Virus record (IMG/VR): IMGVR_UViG_2711768076_000008
From: a virus
Lineage: Duplodnaviria; Heunggongvirae; Uroviricota; Caudoviricetes
Reading direction: 5' to 3' (one strand)
DNA length: 32,575 bases
The translations under genes and the position numbers were made by a program. Of this stretch, positions 631 through 10,730 are shown piece by piece. Numbering within the stretch: the first letter of the stretch is position 1; the number at the start of each line of letters is the position of its first letter. The notes beneath the pieces were generated by a model. That model saw nothing but the letters and a program-made list of their open reading frames with translations, did no database searches and was not told the origin of the DNA.

Positions 631-1061
631 AGGCGCATACCGCTTAGTTACCGCTCTGATAATTCTTACCTGTCCGGCAATGGCGCTGATATCAATATAA
701 AGCGCCATCGCTGTTTCTTTGCTGATCCCTGGACGCCTTCCATTCTGATGTTTGACTTCGCCCACTGAGAAATCCTCTGTTTCCCCTTAACGCCGGGGTA
801 GCGGAACAAAAACCTGCTGCATAGTTATTAAAGTTGAACCCTGCCGTCATGTTCTTACGCCTCGGGCTGGCTACTTAACCCCTGACCACTGCCTGGTAAC
901 TCGAAGTATTGCCCTGCATTCTGTAGGATGGGGTGAGGGAATGAATGAAGTTTAGAAAAACGAACTTTTCAGGTCAATGTTTTTTTATCAAAACATTTTA
1001 AGCAGGCAGCTGTTAAGCCATCACCACGATGGCATACAGTTAATCAAATAGATGAGGTTGG

Positions 1062-1700
1062 TTAAATATCTTGTTGAATTTTAAAGCATACGCCCAATAT
1101 GCAAGATAGATCATCCAGCATAATTGAAGGGTAGCGAGGATTCGTGGGGACTAAAAGAATATCCGGCCCTTCTATCTCCAGTTTACGAATGACAGGTGTT
1201 GTGGTCCCTTTGGGTAAGGCAAGGACAATATTTCCTGGTTGTACGGTTCGATCGGGATCAACAAAAACTGTTGAACCATTTGGGATGGAAACTCCCCCAC
1301 CAGATGTTGACATACTGTCACTCTCTAGAACAACTGCAAAGGTATTGACCGGGATTTCTCCGACAAGCTGCACACAAGAGGTTATTGAGGAATTTTTCAT
1401 ATAATCACTCCAGCTTGCTGCCTGCTGAAGTGATAGTAGCGGAACCGTTTTTATCGGCGGTAAAGATAGATCAAGCGAATCACCTGTATTTAACTCTCCT
1501 CCATTAAGAAGCCAATTTTCGTTTACTTTCAATATTTTTGCCAGTGAACTTATGTAACGCGAGGACGGCGCTCCTCCACCGTTCATCCATTGACTTACGG
1601 AGCCTTTTGATGCGCCAGTGCCATTGACAAGGTCTTTGCCTTTCAGGTTTAGCGCATGCATACGTTGGGTTATGCGTTCAGATATAGTTTGCTTGCTCAT
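1062..1700 (-). CDS. CI-like prophage repressor (HTH N-terminal domain, LexA/S24-type C-terminal domain)
   Basis: 212 aa. N-terminal HTH-like segment (GKDLVNGTGASKGSVSQWMNG) and a C-terminal region resembling the S24 autocleavage fold. Transcribed divergently from the Cro-like gene, as in a lambda immunity region. Confidence 0.8.
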   Translation of the reverse strand: MSKQTISERITQRMHALNLKGKDLVNGTGASKGSVSQWMNGGGAPSSRYISSLAKILKVNENWLLNGGELNTGDSLDLSLPPIKTVPLLSLQQAASWSDYMKNSSITSCVQLVGEIPVNTFAVVLESDSMSTSGGGVSIPNGSTVFVDPDRTVQPGNIVLALPKGTTTPVIRKLEIEGPDILLVPTNPRYPSIMLDDLSCILGVCFKIQQDI

Positions 1701-1791
1701 GTTTTGATTTTAAAACACAGATGGTTTTGTTTCTTGACTTTCTTTGGTTTTGATTATTAAACTTTTGACGTTCAGTTTTATGGAGCGACTC
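1701..1791. promoter_or_regulatory. candidate divergent promoter/operator region between the repressor and Cro-like genes
   Basis: 90-bp AT-rich intergenic region with repeated GTTTTGATT/GGTTTTG motifs (about 1701-1709, 1723-1729, 1747-1755) and a TTGACT -35-like hexamer at 1734-1739. Exact operators and the -10 element are not resolved. Confidence 0.35.
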
Positions 1792-2034
1792 ATGAAAAAA
1801 TCAGAAGTATTAGGCTATTTTGGCGGAGTTGTTAAAACAGCCGCAGCTCTAGGAACGTCAAAAACCACAGTCAGCATGTGGGGGGAAGAGGTTCCGTGGA
1901 AATGGGCGTTGCTAATTCAGGCAGTCACTGCCGGGGCGCTCAAATATGAGTTACACATACCGACGGTTGTCATTCCCGGTTCTGATCATAATCCGCCTTC
2001 TAACCAAGGGGGGATTCATGAAAATCAAGCATGA
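1792..2034 (+). CDS. Cro-like / YdaS-like transcriptional regulator
   Basis: Small ORF (MKKSEVLGYFGG...) divergent from the repressor; the position and my recollection of Rac-prophage YdaS suggest a Cro-type HTH protein. An alternative ATG lies at 1780. Confidence 0.55.
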   Translation: MKKSEVLGYFGGVVKTAAALGTSKTTVSMWGEEVPWKWALLIQAVTAGALKYELHIPTVVIPGSDHNPPSNQGGIHENQA

Positions 2035-2443
2035 ACACATCCGCATGGCGATGAATGCCTGGGCGCATCCGGACGGCGAAAAAGTACCGGCTGCGAAAAT
2101 TACCAAAGCGTATTTCGAGCTGGGAATGACGTTCCCGGAACTGTATGACGACAGCCATCCGGAAGCCCTGGCTCGCAATACCCAGAAAATTTTCCGCTGG
2201 GTGGAGAAAGACACCCCTGATGCAGTTGAAAAAATTCAGGCGTTGTTACCAGCGATCGAAAAGGCAATGCCACCTTTGCTGGTGGCCAGAATGCGCAGCC
2301 ACAGTTCAGCTTATTTTCGGGAGTTGGTGGAGACGCGGGAGCGACTGGTGAGAGACGCTGATGATTTTGTCGCAGTGGCAATCGCCGGTTTCAATCAGAT
2401 GAACCGTGGTGGCCCGGCAGGAAATGCTGTGGCAGTACATTGA
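2018..2443 (+). CDS. YdaT-like protein (CII-position regulator/toxin-domain family)
   Basis: ORF MKIKHEHIRMAMNAWAHPDGEK... overlaps the Cro-like stop and resembles the Rac-prophage YdaT sequence as I recall it. Not verified by search. Confidence 0.55.
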   Translation: MKIKHEHIRMAMNAWAHPDGEKVPAAKITKAYFELGMTFPELYDDSHPEALARNTQKIFRWVEKDTPDAVEKIQALLPAIEKAMPPLLVARMRSHSSAYFRELVETRERLVRDADDFVAVAIAGFNQMNRGGPAGNAVAVH

Positions 2444-2514
2444 CTGACAATAGCCATATCGAATCGCTTCCGGCAACTCGTGAGTAAAAAGATTCGGTAT
2501 CAGAAGAGGTGAGT

Positions 2515-3585
2515 ATGGCTAACGCCTGGCTCAGATTATGGCATGACATGCCAAATGACCCTAAGTGGCGAACAATTGCCAGGGTGTCAGGGCAGCCAAT
2601 TGCAACAGTGATGGCAGTGTATATCCACCTCCTGGTGAGCGCGTCACGAAATGTCACGCGAGGTCACATTGATGTCACGACAGAAGATTTGGCAAGTGCG
2701 CTCGACGTGACAGAAGAGGTAATTGATTCAATTTTGCAGACGATGCAGGGGCGGGTACTTGATGGTGATTTAATCACTGGATGGGAAAAACGCCAGGTGC
2801 TGAAAGAGGACAACGGCAATATTTCGCAAACCGCAAAATCTCCGGCAGAGCGCAAGAGGGCGCAGCGAGAGAGGGAAAGAAAGCGGGAACAAAATGGCGA
2901 TTGTCACGGCGAGTCACGAAATGTCACGCACATGTCACGACGAGTCACGACAGATAAAGATACAGATAAAGATACAGATCAAGAAGATCAAAACACTATG
3001 GTCCATGGCGTAAAAAACGCCACGAACCAGGCAGGGGATGTTCAGACCGTCACTCCTGGCCAGCCCGCAGGCACGACACCGGAAGCCGATTCAGCGTATG
3101 CGCTGAAAGCCGATTCGGGCGCTGTGCAGCAGGTGATGACCGCAAGGCAGGAGCAATCACACCAACTTCAGCAGCCTGAAGCCGATTCCGCCATTCAGCG
3201 GGAAGCCGATCGGGTAGTCCCGGAAAACACCGGGCAGCCTGTGGGACGAGTGGATTATCCTGATGTGTTCGAACAGGTCTGGCGGGAATACCCGTTGCGT
3301 GCCGGGGCAAACCCGAAGAAATCCGCTTTCAGTGCCTGGAAAGCCAGATTACGCGAGGGGGTGCCACCAGAGGCCATGCTGGATGGCGTGAGGCGTTACG
3401 CAAGATACCTTGCGGCTACCGGGAAAACGGGAACGGAATTTGTTCAGCGAGCGACGACGTTTTTTGGACCGGACCGGAATTTTGAAAACCCCTGGCTGCT
3501 CCCGGTAAGCGGCACGAACAACCAGCGTTGTGTGAATCATATTTCTGAACCGGATAACGAAATTCCGCCGGGCTTCAGGGGGTAA
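2515..3585 (+). CDS. putative replication initiation protein (lambda O-like role) containing the origin iterons
   Basis: 356 aa ORF downstream of the cro/cII-like genes. Its coding sequence holds two clusters of GTCACG repeats at about 10-bp spacing plus an A/T-rich direct repeat, the classic layout of an iteron origin inside the initiator gene. SD AGAGG sits 5 nt upstream of the ATG. Confidence 0.6.
   Translation: MANAWLRLWHDMPNDPKWRTIARVSGQPIATVMAVYIHLLVSASRNVTRGHIDVTTEDLASALDVTEEVIDSILQTMQGRVLDGDLITGWEKRQVLKEDNGNISQTAKSPAERKRAQRERERKREQNGDCHGESRNVTHMSRRVTTDKDTDKDTDQEDQNTMVHGVKNATNQAGDVQTVTPGQPAGTTPEADSAYALKADSGAVQQVMTARQEQSHQLQQPEADSAIQREADRVVPENTGQPVGRVDYPDVFEQVWREYPLRAGANPKKSAFSAWKARLREGVPPEAMLDGVRRYARYLAATGKTGTEFVQRATTFFGPDRNFENPWLLPVSGTNNQRCVNHISEPDNEIPPGFRG
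2643..2679. repeat. iteron cluster 1 (4 x GTCACG/GTCACA, about 10-11 bp spacing)
   Basis: GTCACG at 2643, 2653 and 2674, with GTCACA at 2663; read directly from the sequence. Confidence 0.6.
2903..2990. repeat. iteron cluster 2 (5 x GTCACG, 10-11 bp spacing) followed by a tandem ACAGATAAAGAT repeat, A/T-rich: candidate ori
   Basis: GTCACG at 2903, 2913, 2923, 2934 and 2944, then cagataaagatacagataaagatacagatcaagaagatcaaaac. Confidence 0.6.
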
Positions 3586-3625
3586 GTGTTAATTTCTGGT
3601 CATGAGGTAATTTTCAGGAGGGCTT

Positions 3626-4048
3626 GTGGCAAAAGTTTTTACACAAGAAGAGCGAGAAAAAATTAAAGGGCAGGTTGTTGAACTCGTACGCCAGAGTGGG
3701 CGTGAGACGTTACGGCAACTGGAAGTCAAGACAGGTGCGACAAGATATCTGATGAGCGTTCTCGCAAGAGAGCTGGTTGCCAGCGGCGATGTATACAACT
3801 CCGGCTACGGGTTATTCCCCTCTGAACAGGCGCGTAAGGACTGGCAAAACGCCCGCAAAAAACTCTCGAGGGCAAAGGTGAAGAAACCTGCTGTGGTTGA
3901 TCCGGACCTTATCTGGTCATCACCTGACGGAGAAATACGTCGCTACGACAGTCGCCTAAACATAATCTGTCGCGAGTGCCGGAAGAGTGAAGCTATGCAG
4001 CGTGTACTGGCTTTCTATCAGGGGAATTTTCAGGAGGCGGCGCAGTGA
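3626..4048 (+). CDS. hypothetical phage protein (140 aa)
   Basis: GTG start with an AGGAGG SD upstream; basic protein with no motif I recognise. Confidence 0.5.
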   Translation: MAKVFTQEEREKIKGQVVELVRQSGRETLRQLEVKTGATRYLMSVLARELVASGDVYNSGYGLFPSEQARKDWQNARKKLSRAKVKKPAVVDPDLIWSSPDGEIRRYDSRLNIICRECRKSEAMQRVLAFYQGNFQEAAQ

Positions 4049-4245
4049 GCAGGATTGACTACCAGGAATTGGCTGCTGCTAACGCTTTCCTAGCTGATGT
4101 ACGGGCGGTGGCGTTTAACGACCTTTGCGCGGCGTTTGCCAGGCACGCAAAAGTTGCAGGACTGGATGATGCCGATACCGTAACGCTTAAGGAAGTGACA
4201 GAAGCATTGTTGCATTGTGCGGAACAGATTCGCGCGCCTGAATAA
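4045..4245 (+). CDS. hypothetical small protein (66 aa)
   Basis: ORF whose start overlaps the preceding stop (translational coupling). Confidence 0.4.
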   Translation: MSRIDYQELAAANAFLADVRAVAFNDLCAAFARHAKVAGLDDADTVTLKEVTEALLHCAEQIRAPE

Positions 4246-4340
4246 TTAAATTTAGTGTTGTAAATAAAATTTAATCCTTAACCGGAGGGATTTCTGCACC
4301 CTCAGAACATCAGGAGGCCGCCCGAAAGGGCGGTAATGAA

Positions 4341-4523
4341 ATGCGAAAGTTCAGAATAATTATTGAAACGGGAATAGCTGGTGGAGATTTTGAGGATGTA
4401 TTCGAAGTGGATGATGGTGCGACACCAGATGAAATACAGGACGAAGCAAAAGAAATTTTCTTTAACTACTGCAATTACTCATATCACGAAATAAAAGATG
4501 AGGAGGAAGAACAAAATGGCTGA
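4341..4523 (+). CDS. hypothetical small acidic protein (60 aa)
   Basis: ORF rich in D/E; AGGAGG SD at 4312-4317 separated from the ATG by a 6-bp hairpin with a GAAA loop. Confidence 0.45.
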   Translation: MRKFRIIIETGIAGGDFEDVFEVDDGATPDEIQDEAKEIFFNYCNYSYHEIKDEEEEQNG

Positions 4524-4692
4524 TTTTGGTTCAACTAAATACAACGTCAGTTTTGAAGAATGGCATGAACTGTTAATGGACTATGCAGAGTTACGCGGTG
4601 GAAGTGCCGCTGATGCTGAAGCATGGCGTTATGACTACGAAGCAGGAAAAACTCCGGTCGAAGCATATTGTGATGAGTGGGGCGATGAATGA
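4516..4692 (+). CDS. hypothetical small acidic protein (58 aa)
   Basis: Internal ATG at 4516 preceded by GAGGAGGAAG; the track ORF begins at 4498. Confidence 0.45.
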   Translation: MADFGSTKYNVSFEEWHELLMDYAELRGGSAADAEAWRYDYEAGKTPVEAYCDEWGDE

Positions 4693-5204
4693 GCGAGATT
4701 AATTATCAGGAAGGACATGAAACGGCAGGGCAGGCAAAACCAGTTGCATGGCGATATCGCTACGTGAAAAAAGGCATTACGGACTCACAGGGGGAGCCGT
4801 GGGTTGGTGACTGGAAATATGTACCGACAAAAGAGGATTGCAACGACAGGCCGAGCTATGAAATTCAGGCGTTATTCACTGCCCCGCCTGTGCCACTGAC
4901 ATCAGAAGGACTGGTTAAAGCCGTGCGCTTTTATGAACAGGTAAAGCGTGAGAATCCACCAGTCGAAACAGGAGCATGGAAAGATGCTGTTGATTGGGTA
5001 CTCAAAGAGGCCTGCAGTGCTGTCATTCTGGGTAAAGCCGACAACCCACCAGCTTCCGGCAATCAGGTTAGCGAATTAACAATGTGGGTTAAACGACTGG
5101 TCAGCCAACTGAAAAAAGCCAAGCCGGACTGCAAATTACCGGAGAAGGCGATGGACTACCTGAAGCGAAACGGACTGATAAGCGTGGAGGATGTTTTACG
5201 GTGA
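4689..5204 (+). CDS. hypothetical phage protein (171 aa)
   Basis: ATGA overlap with the upstream gene; no motif I recognise. Confidence 0.5.
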   Translation: MSEINYQEGHETAGQAKPVAWRYRYVKKGITDSQGEPWVGDWKYVPTKEDCNDRPSYEIQALFTAPPVPLTSEGLVKAVRFYEQVKRENPPVETGAWKDAVDWVLKEACSAVILGKADNPPASGNQVSELTMWVKRLVSQLKKAKPDCKLPEKAMDYLKRNGLISVEDVLR

Positions 5205-5343
5205 GATAGTAAATGCATGTAATGAGACGGGGGGGGTGAGGGGAGGCTTCATCTGGATAGATCTTGCACCGTTCATATGTTATAAAAACAATTCCTACTG
5301 TTAAATCGTTGTTTGTTTTAGTTGCTATATTTAAGGAGTGAAT

Positions 5344-5601
5344 ATGCAGTTAATTGTTGATTACCCAGATCATAACATTTATTCATCTTTTGTGGATGCG
5401 GATGCTGAACTTCGAGAGTTAAATGGTGGGGCAGTAGTTGTAATAACGGTAAAAATACCTCTTACTAGCACATCGGAACAGTTGTTTAATAAATACACTT
5501 GCGGGGAAAGTCTTCGTATTAAATTGAGGAATGGCGATGAATGGAAAATGTATTTCGTTATGCTTGATGGAGGGCGCTATATATTTTCCTCGCACCTGTG
5601 A
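5344..5601 (+). CDS. hypothetical protein in an AT-rich island (86 aa)
   Basis: AAGGAG SD 5 nt upstream of the ATG; flanked by AT-rich non-coding DNA with lower GC than the surrounding phage genes. Confidence 0.45.
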   Translation: MQLIVDYPDHNIYSSFVDADAELRELNGGAVVVITVKIPLTSTSEQLFNKYTCGESLRIKLRNGDEWKMYFVMLDGGRYIFSSHL

Positions 5602-5697
5602 TAAAAATGATGAGCCGAGACTGTATTTACGGGACGCTGAGAGAATACCATAGAAAAGCTTATCTAACTTAAGTAGAATTGCTGCGGGTGCTTGAGG

Positions 5698-5733
5698 CTA
5701 TCTGCCTCAGGCATGAACACCAAAGGCAGATAG
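5698..5733 (+). promoter_or_regulatory. stable stem-loop in the hok mRNA leader (10-bp perfect stem CTATCTGCCT/AGGCAGATAG)
   Basis: Perfect 10-bp inverted repeat with a 16-nt loop; a mutually exclusive 5-bp hairpin GAGGC/GCCTC (5694-5708) overlaps it. Confidence 0.5.
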
Positions 5734-5854
5734 AGAAAAGCCCCAGTTAACATTACGCGTCCTGCAAGACGCTTAACATTAATCTGAGGCTCAATCTATG
5801 AACGGCAAATCTAGGTTAGCCTCTTACGTGCCGAAAGGCAAGGAGAAGCAGGCT

Positions 5855-6010
5855 ATGAAGCAGCAAAAGGCGATGTTAATCGCCCTGATCGTCATCTGTT
5901 TAACCGTCATAGTGACGGCACTGGTAACGAGGAAAGACCTCTGCGAGGTACGAATCCGAACCGGCCAGACGGAGGTCGCTGTCTTCACAGTCTACGAACC
6001 TGAGGAGTAA
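5855..6010 (+). CDS. hok: Hok/Gef-family type I toxin (51 aa)
   Basis: MKQQKAMLIALIVICLTVIVTALVTRKDLCEVRIRTGQTEVAVFTVYEPEE matches the Hok/Gef fold and is close to the E. coli HokD/RelF sequence as I recall it. AAGGAG SD 9 nt upstream. The in-frame upstream extension (track ORF 5798..6010) is Mok-like. Confidence 0.85.
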   Translation: MKQQKAMLIALIVICLTVIVTALVTRKDLCEVRIRTGQTEVAVFTVYEPEE

Positions 6011-6017
6011 GAGACTT

Positions 6018-6039
6018 GGCGAGGGAGAAATCCCTCGCC
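6018..6039 (+). promoter_or_regulatory. hok 3' stem-loop (9-bp stem, GAAA loop), fold-back-type element
   Basis: GGCGAGGGA-gaaa-TCCCTCGCC immediately after the hok stop codon. Confidence 0.5.
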
Positions 6040-6079
6040 GCCTCTGATGTGTCAGGCATCCTCAACGCACCCGCGCTTA

Positions 6080-6102
6080 ACCCGCTTCGGCGGGTTTATT
6101 TT
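6080..6102 (+). terminator. rho-independent terminator of the hok transcript
   Basis: ACCCGC-TTCG-GCGGGT stem followed by TTTATTTTAT. Confidence 0.7.
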
Positions 6103-6468
6103 ATCTGTAAATATTTTTATAAAAATAATGCCCACACACAGCATAAAACAAAAAGTATCACAGATAAAAAAGGAGCGTAATGTGCAGATTTGTTGTTTTC
6201 CATATTTACTCACTTTAACATAATCAATATTGATATGGTTGTTGTTTCGGTGGTTTCAAACGAGATGTTATGGTGATCTGGTAAAATTGCATAACATTAA
6301 AATTTAATTTATCTAATCGCTTTTAATAATAAGCGTTGTGTTTATCCCAGCAATCTGTTGTTTGACTTTTATTCCATTAATGTAGGGGCTTTACACTGGA
6401 ACCAGTTTATTTATACTTTATACGCCAGCCTGAACAACTGGCACCTGCTGCGCCAGCAGAGACAACCG

Positions 6469-6747
6469 ATGGCGCACGATACCAAATTACACAATTCTGA
6501 TGATTCTGCCGTCTTTGCCAGCAGGCACGGGCGGCGTTCCCGCACTTTCAAATCTGACTGGTTCCAGCATGACCCATGTACTGAAGAACAGGCCGAATGG
6601 CTAATTCATAACTATCGCAGACGCGGATACGAGATTAAGAAAGCCCTCAGCCTCGATTATCGTCACTGGATAATCTATGTCAGGCTCCCTTATTCCGAAC
6701 GCCCACCGCGCCCATCCCGCACATACCAGCAACGGATCTGGAGGTAA
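6469..6747 (+). CDS. hypothetical phage protein (92 aa)
   Basis: ORF ending in TAA immediately before the GTG start of the DUF968 gene (coupled). The start is chosen at the first ATG after a roughly 350-bp AT-rich gap; the track ORF begins at 6358. Confidence 0.4.
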   Translation: MAHDTKLHNSDDSAVFASRHGRRSRTFKSDWFQHDPCTEEQAEWLIHNYRRRGYEIKKALSLDYRHWIIYVRLPYSERPPRPSRTYQQRIWR

Positions 6748-6748
6748 C

Positions 6749-7804
6749 GTGCGGATATTACTTCGACCTGTTCTGGTACCGGAACTCGGGCTGGTGGTCC
6801 TTAGGCCGGGCCGTGAATCCATGCAAGTATTTCATAACCCTCGAGTGCTGGTGGAGCCTGAACCGAAAAGCATGCGCGGTCTGCCGTCCGGAGTCGTCCC
6901 TGCCGTTCGCCAGCCGCTGGCGGAGGATAAATCATTACTGCCATTTTTCAGCGATGAGCGGGTGATTCGTGCTGCTGGCGGCGCTGGGGCACTGTCTGAC
7001 TGGCTGTTGCGTCATGTCAAATCCTGCCAGTGGCCTCATGGTGACTATCATCACAGTGAAATCGTCATACATCGTTACGGTACCGGCGCGATGGTGTTGT
7101 GCTGGCACTGCGACAACCAGTTGCGTGACCAGACATCCGAATCACTCGGGCAACTTGCTCATCAAAACCTGTCAGCATGGATGATTGACGTCATCGGTCA
7201 CGCAATAAGCGGTACGCAGGAGCGTGAATTATCTCTGGCTGAATTATCCTGGTGGGCGGTCCGCAATCAGGTGGCGGACGCGCTACCGGAAGCGGTATTA
7301 CGTCGTTCGCTGGGGTTGCGTGCGGAAAAAATCCGTTCAATGTACCGTGAAAGCGACATCGTACCGGGAGAGCAGACCGCCACCAGCATACTGAAGCAGC
7401 GCACAAAAAATCTTGCGCCGCTGCCTCACGCCCACCAGCAAAAACCGCCACAGGAAAAGACGGTGGTCAGCATTGCTGTTGATCCGGAGTCACCGGCTCA
7501 GTATCTCCAGCGCCAGAAACCACAACGGGAAGAGATGCCTGTATACACGCGCTGGGTAAAAACGCAGAAATGCATGACGTGCGGTAATCAGGCAGATGAT
7601 CCGCATCACATCATTGGTCATGGACTGGGAGGGATGGGAACAAAGGCTGATGATTTGTTTGTTATTCCGCTGTGCCGCAAATGTCATAACGAACTGCACG
7701 CCGGGGTAAAAGATTTTGAAGAAAAACACGGCAGCCAGCTGTTGTTGCTGATTCGTTTTTTAATGCACGCGAGAAATTCGGGCGTCCTGAAGTGGAAAGC
7801 ATAA
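6749..7804 (+). CDS. DUF968-family phage protein with C-terminal HNH-like Cys/His motif (YdfU-like)
   Basis: C-terminal CMTCGN...HHIIGHG...CRKCHNELH motif; GTG start with a GGAGG SD. The position just upstream of rusA and Q is typical of lambdoid nin regions. Confidence 0.6.
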   Translation: MRILLRPVLVPELGLVVLRPGRESMQVFHNPRVLVEPEPKSMRGLPSGVVPAVRQPLAEDKSLLPFFSDERVIRAAGGAGALSDWLLRHVKSCQWPHGDYHHSEIVIHRYGTGAMVLCWHCDNQLRDQTSESLGQLAHQNLSAWMIDVIGHAISGTQERELSLAELSWWAVRNQVADALPEAVLRRSLGLRAEKIRSMYRESDIVPGEQTATSILKQRTKNLAPLPHAHQQKPPQEKTVVSIAVDPESPAQYLQRQKPQREEMPVYTRWVKTQKCMTCGNQADDPHHIIGHGLGGMGTKADDLFVIPLCRKCHNELHAGVKDFEEKHGSQLLLLIRFLMHARNSGVLKWKA

Positions 7805-8182
7805 ATGACAGAATGCATAGAGTTTGTTTTGCCTTACCCGCCGACGGTGAACACCTACTGGCGCCGTCGTGGTAGTACATATTTTGTATCAAAAGCTGGT
7901 GAGCGTTATCGCCATGATGTGGAGCTTATTGTTCGCCAGCAGCGACTGAAATTAAATCTGTCCGGTAGGTTGGCAATCAGGATTATTGCAGAGCCACCGG
8001 ATAAGCGCCGCCGCGACCTGGACAATATCCTGAAGGCACCACTGGATGCGCTGACACATGCAGGACTGCTTATCGACGATGAGCAGTTTGACGAAATCAA
8101 TATAGTGCGCGGTTTGCCTGTTCCTGGTGGGCGACTGGGCGTGAATATTTTCGTAATAAGAGGTAGTAATGATGGTGCGTGA
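7805..8182 (+). CDS. rusA: RusA-family Holliday junction resolvase
   Basis: 125 aa with the conserved DKRRRDLDN segment; start overlaps the upstream stop. Confidence 0.85.
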   Translation: MTECIEFVLPYPPTVNTYWRRRGSTYFVSKAGERYRHDVELIVRQQRLKLNLSGRLAIRIIAEPPDKRRRDLDNILKAPLDALTHAGLLIDDEQFDEINIVRGLPVPGGRLGVNIFVIRGSNDGA

Positions 8183-8540
8183 TATTCAGATGGTTCTTGA
8201 GCGGTGGGGGGCATGGGCTGCGAGTGATAGCTCTGGGGTAGACTATTCACCTATAGCAGCTGGTTTTAAGGGGCTTATGCCGCAGATAAGTAAAACACGA
8301 ATTTCTTGTACAGACGATGACGCTCTTATCATTGAGAGCTGCCTTGCTTTACTAAAAAAGAAAAAACCGTACGAACATTCTCTGATTGTGGCTCATTACC
8401 TATACGGCATCTCGAAACGGAAGATTGCAAAGGCACGCAAAAAAGATGAGAAATTGATACGGATAGAGATCCAGATGGCAGAGGGCTTTATCGATGGCTG
8501 TCTCTCAATGCTTGATGTTCGTCTCGAGATGGAATTGTGA
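8169..8540 (+). CDS. putative late-gene antiterminator (Q-like)
   Basis: 123 aa ORF directly after rusA, the canonical Q position in lambdoid phages; the sequence style fits small Q-family antiterminators. The family call is from context and recollection only. Confidence 0.5.
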   Translation: MMVRDIQMVLERWGAWAASDSSGVDYSPIAAGFKGLMPQISKTRISCTDDDALIIESCLALLKKKKPYEHSLIVAHYLYGISKRKIAKARKKDEKLIRIEIQMAEGFIDGCLSMLDVRLEMEL

Positions 8541-10420: not shown

Positions 10421-10496
10421 GGCCCTTTAGCTCAGTGGTGAGAGCGAGCGACTCATAATCGCCAGGTCGCTGGTTCAAATCCAGCAAGGGCCACCA
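10421..10496 (+). tRNA. tRNA with CAU anticodon (Ile2/lysidine type or Met)
   Basis: 7-bp acceptor stem GGCCCTT/AAGGGCC, perfect T arm (GCTGG-TTCAAAT-CCAGC), anticodon loop CTCATAA, CCA end encoded. Resembles the E. coli ileX-type tRNA as I recall it. Confidence 0.8.
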
Positions 10497-10497
10497 A

Positions 10498-10574
10498 CCG
10501 CCACTAGCTCATCAGGAAAGAGCGTCAACCCTTTAAGTTGAGTGTGCGAGGTTCGAGTCCCCGGTGGCGGTCCA
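10498..10574 (+). tRNA. tRNA-like gene, anticodon ambiguous (loop CCTTTAA reads UUU by position but has C at position 33)
   Basis: Acceptor stem CCGCCAC/GTGGCGG, D stem GCTC/GAGC, anticodon stem TCAAC/GTTGA, T stem with one A-C mismatch, CCA encoded. The arms resemble a tRNA-Arg(UCU) scaffold with an altered loop. Confidence 0.55.
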
Positions 10575-10576
10575 GT

Positions 10577-10652
<76 letters not shown>

Positions 10653-10655
10653 TAT

Positions 10656-10730
<75 letters not shown>

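Follow-up and report, generated by a model that had tools for sequence, protein, structure and literature searches.

The segment at positions 5651-6103 (+ strand) of the viral record IMGVR_UViG_2711768076_000008 very probably carries a complete hok/mok/sok type I toxin-antitoxin cassette of the hokD/hokW clade, predicted from its letters and from modelled RNA folds to work by a folding switch together with antisense control. The window, in what follows, is the whole stretch of 32,575 nucleotides that was analysed. The cassette is an ordinary copy of a common, well-described RNA-controlled module that is already known, and it adds no new kind of system. The main value of the locus lies in correct annotation: genome pipelines annotate the toxin open reading frame only and omit mok, the Sok gene and the RNA switch elements, the coordinates of which are now supplied for a complete locus. 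What hok/sok does for a lambdoid prophage, be it lysis timing, stabilisation or defence, is a moderately interesting question.

An earlier note on this DNA had proposed a hok/sok arrangement. The Pfam toxin domain, the Rfam leader, the order of the boxes known from plasmid R1, the switch obtained in silico, the helices kept among relatives and the identity with hokW-sokW all agree with that proposal, and the sequence features that the note listed were all found where it had placed them or within a few bases. Positions 5640-6110 were read straight from the sequence, and the R1 paradigm, as summarised in PMC9841398, served as the map for placing elements. The R1 regulatory boxes could all be placed on the hok cassette, in the correct order.

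Toxin and mok coding sequences

Two nested reading frames and their ribosome-binding sites make up the coding part of the locus:

5855-6010, + strand: hok toxin gene, 51 aa plus stop; Pfam HOK_GEF; hokD in the identical RefSeq locus
5798-6010, + strand: mok reading frame, 70 codons; ATG at 5798, stop at 6008-6010; in frame with hok
5786-5789, + strand: mok Shine-Dalgarno (SD) sequence GAGG, 8 nt before the mok ATG; invariant in 32 loci
5842-5845, + strand: hok Shine-Dalgarno sequence GGAG, read from the sequence; conserved

The 51-aa Hok peptide, read from the ATG at 5855, is MKQQKAMLIALIVICLTVIVTALVTRKDLCEVRIRTGQTEVAVFTVYEPEE, that is, HokD with an A46V change. It matches Pfam PF01848 HOK_GEF with an E value of 6.4e-22 and 77.3 bits (cut-off 22). 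The NCBIfam Hok and HokA models also match this reading frame, but under their curated cut-offs, so family membership rests on Pfam and Rfam instead. Both HokD (preprint 10.1101/2025.08.07.668861) and HokW (PMC8621323) are reported to be toxic. The 70-aa frame at 5798-6010, its same-frame ATG at 5855 and the HOK_GEF match bear out the earlier description of a 51-aa Hok toxin in frame with a Mok-like extension.

Across the 32 aligned loci described below, this one counted, the mok reading frame always spans the hok start and its frame relative to hok varies: frame 0 in 23 loci, +1 in six and a 19-codon open reading frame in three. In-frame mok was considered as a possible novelty and rejected, since with 23 of 32 loci it is the majority state and thus the normal arrangement for the clade. 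In the +1-frame relatives of the clade, mok terminates within hok. The mok frame of R1 is also out of frame with hok. A candidate TadA editing hairpin at Tyr47 was likewise set aside: its TACGAA motif does not vary, but in the full-length fold this motif lies outside any hairpin loop.

Promoter, leader and 3' elements of the hok mRNA

The elements of the sense transcript are as follows:

5651-5679, + strand: hok promoter from a consensus scan; -35 TAGAAA at 5651-5656, 17-nt spacer, -10 TAGAAT at 5674-5679
5686-6103, + strand: predicted full-length hok mRNA, about 418 nt; start placed by promoter spacing and by where the Rfam model begins, end at the T run of the terminator
5686-5697, + strand: tac (translational activator element), GGGUGCUUGAGG; predicted to pair with fbi when the mRNA is full length and with ucb once it is shortened
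5688-5714, + strand: metastable 5' hairpin, 11 bp (5688-5698/5704-5714), -19.6 kcal/mol; sequesters tac in the modelled nascent RNA
5698-5733, + strand: perfect 10-bp stem (5698-5707/5724-5733), mutually exclusive with the metastable hairpin
5738-5746, + strand: ucb (anti-SD box), AAGCCCCAG; predicted to pair with the mok SD region 5784-5791 when the mRNA is full length and with tac once it is shortened
5746-5783, + strand: Sok-target hairpin, the complement of which forms the Sok RNA hairpin; 18-nt extension relative to the Rfam consensus
5818-5823, + strand: dcb, AGCCUC; partner of the mok SD in the shortened mRNA
6017-6040, + strand: 3' hairpin with a GAAA loop; 9-bp stem 6018-6026/6031-6039
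6060-6072, + strand: fbi (fold-back inhibition element), CCUCAACGCACCC; 12 bp with tac, one bulge
6079-6103, + strand: intrinsic terminator; 7-bp GC-rich stem (hairpin 6079-6096), UUCG loop, T run

In relatives, a -10-like hexamer (TAGAAT, TATAAT or TATATT) lies 6-8 nt upstream of a GGG start. The Rfam model RF01794 ("sok") aligns to 5686-5860 over its full length, with model position 1 at 5686, 111.7 bits (gathering score 59) and an E value of 7e-25. This match falls on the hok-sense strand, so what the model describes is the leader of the hok mRNA rather than the antisense gene.

Several structures had been noticed before. The perfect 10-bp stem at 5698-5733 is present exactly as described, 5698-5707 pairing fully with 5724-5733, and so are the 9-bp stem with a GAAA loop past the stop codon and the intrinsic terminator after it (6079-6096, then the T run). 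The competing 5-bp hairpin at 5694-5708 needs amending: its pairing (5694-5698/5704-5708) exists, but as the core of the 11-bp metastable hairpin. By analogy with R1, the 3' GAAA hairpin is likely to be the protective end of the processed mRNA. The 18-nt insertion in the Sok-target hairpin was weighed as a new feature and discarded, being common, with compensatory changes, to the entire hokD/hokW clade and to loci of Kluyvera and Enterobacteriaceae.

A predicted folding switch and its conservation

The full-length mRNA (5686-6103, 418 nt) has a predicted minimum free energy of -175.9 kcal/mol (z = -8.7 against shuffles); together with the Rfam E value of 7e-25, this speaks against a chance resemblance. 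In this fold, a 12-bp helix with a single bulge joins tac to fbi, and the mok SD region is paired with ucb. When the 3' end is shortened to 6045-6058 and fbi is gone, tac-ucb pairing is predicted instead; two of the three shortened RNAs (ends 6050 and 6058) also show SD-dcb pairing, and two (ends 6045 and 6058) a free Sok-target hairpin. For the first 30-50 nt of nascent RNA the best fold is the 11-bp hairpin that hides tac, and once the transcript extends to 5745 the fold with tac-ucb pairing and the 10-bp stem becomes the most stable. The alternative mRNA folds that the earlier note expected are thus obtained, closed for the full-length RNA and open for the 3'-shortened ones, and these predicted structures on 5686-6103 reproduce the published hok mechanism at the level of modelling.

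To assemble relatives, one genome per species was scanned, yielding 47 loci that encode relatives. The alignment, from tac to fbi, has 32 rows: 29 non-redundant full loci, this locus, that of Sakai prophage 5 (Sp5) and that of a Rac-type phage. It covers Escherichia, Kluyvera, Photorhabdus, Pantoea and Citrobacter. The R1-type locus, whose leader has diverged too far for reliable alignment, was kept out of these rows and served for element-by-element comparison only.

The structures scored on this alignment were derived from the sequence of the present locus, which favours them over the slid controls with which they are compared: the closed (full-length) structure is paired in 86% of cells (controls about 43%) and has 27 pairs in which both sides changed (controls 7-13); the open structure is paired in 85% (39-49%) and has 13 such pairs (4-7); and the metastable hairpin is paired in 96% (28-54%) and has two (0-1). 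Among individual helices, tac-ucb is paired at 99.6%, the 10-bp stem at 92.5% (three pairs changed on both sides), tac-fbi at 90% and the 3' hairpin at 88% (three pairs changed on both sides); the Sok-target hairpin has six pairs with both-side changes, and the SD-dcb pairs are invariant in the 32 loci. The most telling evidence comes from tac position 5689, which is U or C. It covaries with fbi position 6069 (U-A in 19 loci, C-G in 11) and, in the metastable hairpin, with position 5713 (U-A in 19 loci, C-G in 12); in the tac-ucb helix position 5689 is a bulge. This double covariation indicates that the mutually exclusive pairings are both under selection.

Within the clade, tac, ucb, dcb and both hexamers of the Sok promoter are 96-100% conserved, the conservation of the hexamers being inseparable from that of the overlapping sense-RNA dcb and hairpin. 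The most variable leader segment is 5799-5812, the target of the Sok 5' tail, at 57% identity, against at least 80% elsewhere in the clade.

A probable Sok antisense gene

A candidate antisense gene was located on the minus strand:

5841-5813, - strand: putative Sok promoter; -35 TTGCCT at 5841-5836, 17-nt spacer, -10 TAACCT at 5818-5813; at the position of the R1 Sok promoter
5806-5736, - strand: predicted Sok RNA, about 71 nt; single-stranded 5' tail, long hairpin, U-rich 3' end; ends placed to within about 3 nt

A Sok-like gene had been expected on this strand at about 5750-5860. The expectation of such a gene stood; its limits shifted, the predicted RNA covering about 5806-5736 and its promoter reaching to 5841. 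The predicted RNA folds at -31.5 kcal/mol (z = -6.2), and the promoter overlaps dcb, as it does in R1.

A generic sigma-70 consensus scan found no minus-strand promoter at the locus, because the -10 hexamer TAACCT matches the consensus at three of six positions only. We did not take this null scan as refuting Sok, since the sokW promoter works with the same weak TAACCT. The promoter here is identical to that of Sp5 sokW over a stretch that begins upstream of the -35 and extends a single base beyond the -10. The mutagenic primer YO-421 replaces exactly the AGGTTA/TAACCT -10 hexamer of sokW, and mutating this hexamer abolished antitoxin activity; sokW RNA was detected on Northern blots, neutralises HokW and is reported to have 71 nt of complementarity to the hokW leader (PMC8621323). 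The length predicted here, about 71 nt, agrees with that reported complementarity. Promoter identity with sokW, the sokW experiments and the matching length together make it very likely that the Sok gene at 5736-5841 (- strand) is real.

Distribution and prophage context

A 551-nt query around the locus has matches in 4726 of 5426 complete E. coli genomes, at a median of two places per genome. Two genomes are 100% identical over the query, and the PGAP annotation names the reading frame hokD (WP_000813256.1). Strains LSN03-016011/A and EcPNK006 are examples of carriers of the identical cassette. Seventy-nine phage records match as well, isolated temperate phages included, with annotations such as hok, mok, MokW and HokD; near-identical cassettes occur, for example, in the isolated temperate phages Tritos and mEp460. 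Homology to most matches begins near 5669, at the hok -10, and ends near 6097, at the terminator, which indicates that the cassette moves as a unit.

The cassette lies between the replication genes and Q of a lambdoid E. coli prophage that appears to have a full late region. The early gene order is a LexA-family (CI-type) repressor, cro, YdaT, the replication region, small open reading frames, hok, DUF968, RusA and Q; four tRNA genes, lysis genes, terminase, head, tail, J and Lom follow Q. Positions 780-8221 are 98.9% identical to a prophage of strain LSN03-016011/A, and the late region matches a different mosaic. The record with the 100% match at the locus, NZ_CP035884.1, is collinear only across 780-8221 (98.9%), with a different mosaic in the late region, and its annotation was applied to the early region only. 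From cro (about 1790) to Q (about 8520), all annotated genes, hok included, are on the + strand, and the stretch from a pR-like promoter (1734-1763) to the hok terminator (6079) contains no + strand terminator-like site.

The open reading frame just upstream (5338-5601) has 38% GC, against 51% for the whole stretch, and matches no Pfam or NCBIfam family. No relBE genes, therefore, flank the locus; the two remarks made earlier on its surroundings, that relBE-like neighbours are missing and that the upstream neighbour is an unrelated AT-rich frame, both hold.

Proposed mechanism and role

In silico folding and homology suggest the following early steps. The hok mRNA would be made from its own promoter, the 11-bp 5' hairpin hiding tac during transcription. 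The finished 418-nt RNA would then close by tac-fbi pairing, with ucb covering the mok SD, and in this form it would be neither translated nor bound by Sok. The later steps are modelled on R1 and on Sp5 hokW-sokW. Slow 3' trimming would remove fbi, upon which tac-ucb pairing and the Sok-target hairpin would form and the mok translation start region would be exposed. Short-lived Sok (about 71 nt), made constitutively from the minus strand, would pair with the mok start region and block translation of mok and thereby of the coupled hok, and the Sok-hok duplex would be cut by RNase III. Should the Sok supply end, the stable pool of processed mRNA would be translated, and the 51-aa Hok would insert into the inner membrane and collapse it. 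Activation by 3' exonucleases and duplex cleavage by RNase III are known for R1 (PMC9841398) and partly known for hokW (PMC8621323).

The most likely role, by analogy with one study of one relative, hokW-sokW, is that Sok disappears when the prophage is induced and that Hok speeds up growth arrest and the release of phage. In Sp5, sokW RNA is lost on RecA-dependent induction, HokW is made about 1 h before endolysin, and phage release is doubled (PMC8621323). The same machinery may instead serve prophage stabilisation or abortive-infection defence, a possibility that we take seriously while favouring help with lysis. As cited in PMC8621323, R1 hok/sok stabilises plasmids and reduces T4 plating; hok is about four-fold enriched in prophages, where its function is unknown (10.1101/2025.08.07.668861), and the cassette, with its own promoter and terminator and its movement as a unit, is moron-like. 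Against this, the sole direct test of a prophage copy gave faster arrest and a two-fold higher phage yield on induction, and the uninduced lysogen showed no growth effect (PMC8621323); enrichment of hok beside defence systems, moreover, was not found (10.1101/2025.08.07.668861).

It is far less probable that the cassette is a silent relic, recognisable but with killing and regulation lost, like the hok loci of the K-12 chromosome. There, insertion elements interrupt hokA, hokC and hokE, and a rearrangement has disrupted hokD (PMC12214031), which lacks everything upstream of the hok SD. Decayed copies also occur among the relatives, such as L008 with its broken tac, and the chromosomal loci tested so far gave no post-segregational killing, according to a preprint (10.1101/2025.08.07.668861). 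Here, however, every element is intact, with no insertion element and no frameshift; this intactness and the strong conservation of tac, ucb, dcb and the Sok promoter hexamers within the clade speak against a relic, as do the cassettes of Tritos and mEp460 and the fact that the 93.5%-identical hokW-sokW is functional (PMC8621323). Also unlikely, if somewhat less so, is that Hok comes mainly from early-right (pR) read-through on induction, the switch and Sok only silencing promoter-derived mRNA in the lysogen. The unbroken + strand gene order and the lack of a terminator-like site upstream of 6079 fit such a transcript, which would miss the exact 5' end needed for tac-fbi closure. An extended 5' end nevertheless leaves internal tac-fbi pairing possible, and in Sp5 mitomycin C brought no rise in hokW mRNA, whereas the sokW RNA disappeared (PMC8621323).

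Two linked ideas may be added, although as a pair they are speculative and rather improbable. Situated in the early-right operon and separated from the pR-like promoter by no predicted terminator, the cassette could act as an induction-coupled timer: read-through after repressor cleavage would meet the convergent Sok promoter head-on and shut it off. If true, this would account for the RecA-dependent loss of sokW RNA in Sp5, for which there is so far no explanation. The second idea is that the hypervariable 14 nt past the mok ATG (5799-5812), as the target of the Sok 5' tail, give a copy-specific response to Sok; if so, each prophage copy would answer its own Sok only, and multiple copies per genome would act independently.

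Comparison with known hok/sok systems

The closest characterised system is hokW-sokW of Sakai prophage 5 (VT2-Sakai, E. coli O157:H7), a type I toxin-antitoxin pair by experiment (PMC8621323), with about 93.5% DNA identity over 5669-6082. It shares the architecture of the present cassette, down to the 18-nt extension of the Sok-target hairpin, a 70-aa mok in frame with hok and a Sok promoter whose -35, spacer and -10 are identical, and it too lies in a lambdoid prophage on the same strand as the flanking genes. HokW has 46 of the 51 residues of Hok here, the C-terminus reading VFTVYEPEE in the present protein and VFVDYESEK in HokW. The two also differ at many positions in 5799-5812, just past the mok ATG in the Sok 5' tail target, and the Sp5 locus diverges directly past fbi and is without the GC hairpin terminator found here. 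Whereas hokW-sokW is known by experiment, the present cassette is known from its sequence.

With hok/sok (parB) of R1 the cassette shares the order tac, metastable hairpin, ucb, Sok target, mok SD, dcb/Sok -10, hok, 3' hairpin and fbi, and the same predicted closed and open folds. Unlike R1, it has mok in frame with hok and a longer Sok-target hairpin, and its host is a prophage rather than a plasmid. At the protein level, HokW is 44% identical to R1 Hok (PMC8621323). Loci of the hokC (gef)/mokC/sokC type (L018-L025) have the same tac and fbi sequences as here and about 80% protein identity; mok is in frame in four of the six sampled and a 19-codon open reading frame in the other two. They differ in being without the 18-nt hairpin extension, in their Sok hexamers (-35 TTGACC, -10 CACTCT) and in occupying a fixed chromosomal site, not a prophage.

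K-12 hokD (relF), in the Qin prophage, is nearly identical in the coding region, 3' hairpin, fbi and terminator. The alignment to hokD/relF that the earlier note had suggested places homology from the hok SD onward only, with 50 of 51 Hok residues identical (A46V); relBE stands in place of the promoter, tac, ucb, Sok target, mok start and Sok promoter, and K-12 hokD is described as being without the canonical components (PMC12214031). Judged by sequence comparison, the present cassette is the complete form, without relBE, of the locus left truncated in K-12 hokD, and this form is presumably ancestral.

Variation and constraint within the cassette

Thirty-two hok loci, the window included, were aligned from tac to fbi. 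The most variable leader segment within the hokD/hokW clade is 5799-5812, the 14 nt that follow the mok ATG, where identity falls to 57%; every other leader segment retains at least 80% identity within this clade. The hairpin that encloses the variable segment (5793-5798/5812-5817) is conserved only in part, with 67% of cells paired across the 32 loci. The 5' tail of the predicted Sok RNA would pair with these same 14 nt.

A single-T indel at 5839/5840 (column 159 of the alignment) has a twofold consequence. It switches the mok frame relative to hok, in-frame vs +1, and also converts the Sok -35 from TTGCCT to TTGACC, with a spacer longer by one. Regarding strand assignment, the Rfam model RF01794 is named 'sok antitoxin', but it matches the hok-sense strand at 5686-5860 and its final model positions fall on the hok ATG. 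A hit to this model accordingly identifies the hok leader rather than the Sok-encoding strand.

Within the toxin gene, the hexamer TACGAA (5993-5998, at Tyr47 of Hok) does not vary among the 32 aligned loci. The tRNA deaminase TadA recognises the motif UACG. In the predicted full-length hok mRNA fold the A of this motif is unpaired, yet it lies outside any hairpin loop.

Surroundings of the cassette and possible read-through

Homology to the hok cassettes of other phages stops at about 6097, and a spacer of 29% GC lies directly 3' of the hok terminator. The end of homology thus places a module boundary at this spacer, with which two promoter-like sites beyond the terminator are reported:

6104-6360, spacer of 29% GC
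6197-6224, promoter-like site
6390-6417, promoter-like site

On the upstream side, a scan from the pR-like promoter to the hok terminator (1734-6079) found no + strand terminator-like site. Judged from this sequence scan, early-right transcription would traverse the hok cassette, convergent to the Sok promoter.

Further downstream, the window carries a tRNA gene cluster:

10421-10730, + strand, four tRNA genes, after the Q antiterminator and ahead of the holin

They carry the anticodons CAT, TTT (Lys), TGT (Thr) and TCC (Gly). ARAGORN calls the tRNA with the CAT anticodon Met, and PGAP annotates it as Ile in the homologous locus.

Comparison with other hok loci

The hokW locus of Sakai prophage 5 (about 1897-1960 of that locus) departs from the window (6083-6103) directly after fbi and is without a counterpart of the GC-rich hairpin terminator. 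The second copy in E. coli ECMA0423 is a paralogue whose Hok protein is identical; its tac has decayed, GGGTGCTTGAGG being absent, and its leader has small indels. It exemplifies a dead hok copy.

In the relBE-hokD locus of the K-12 Qin prophage, homology to the window (compared at 5841) starts only at the hok SD, the K-12 leader being replaced by relBE. In a Kluyvera sp. contig the same relE-proximal sequence as in K-12 is joined, again at this point, to another Hok, which is Citrobacter-like (68% identical). The same join with another Hok shows that the relBE-hok junction was reused or recombined.
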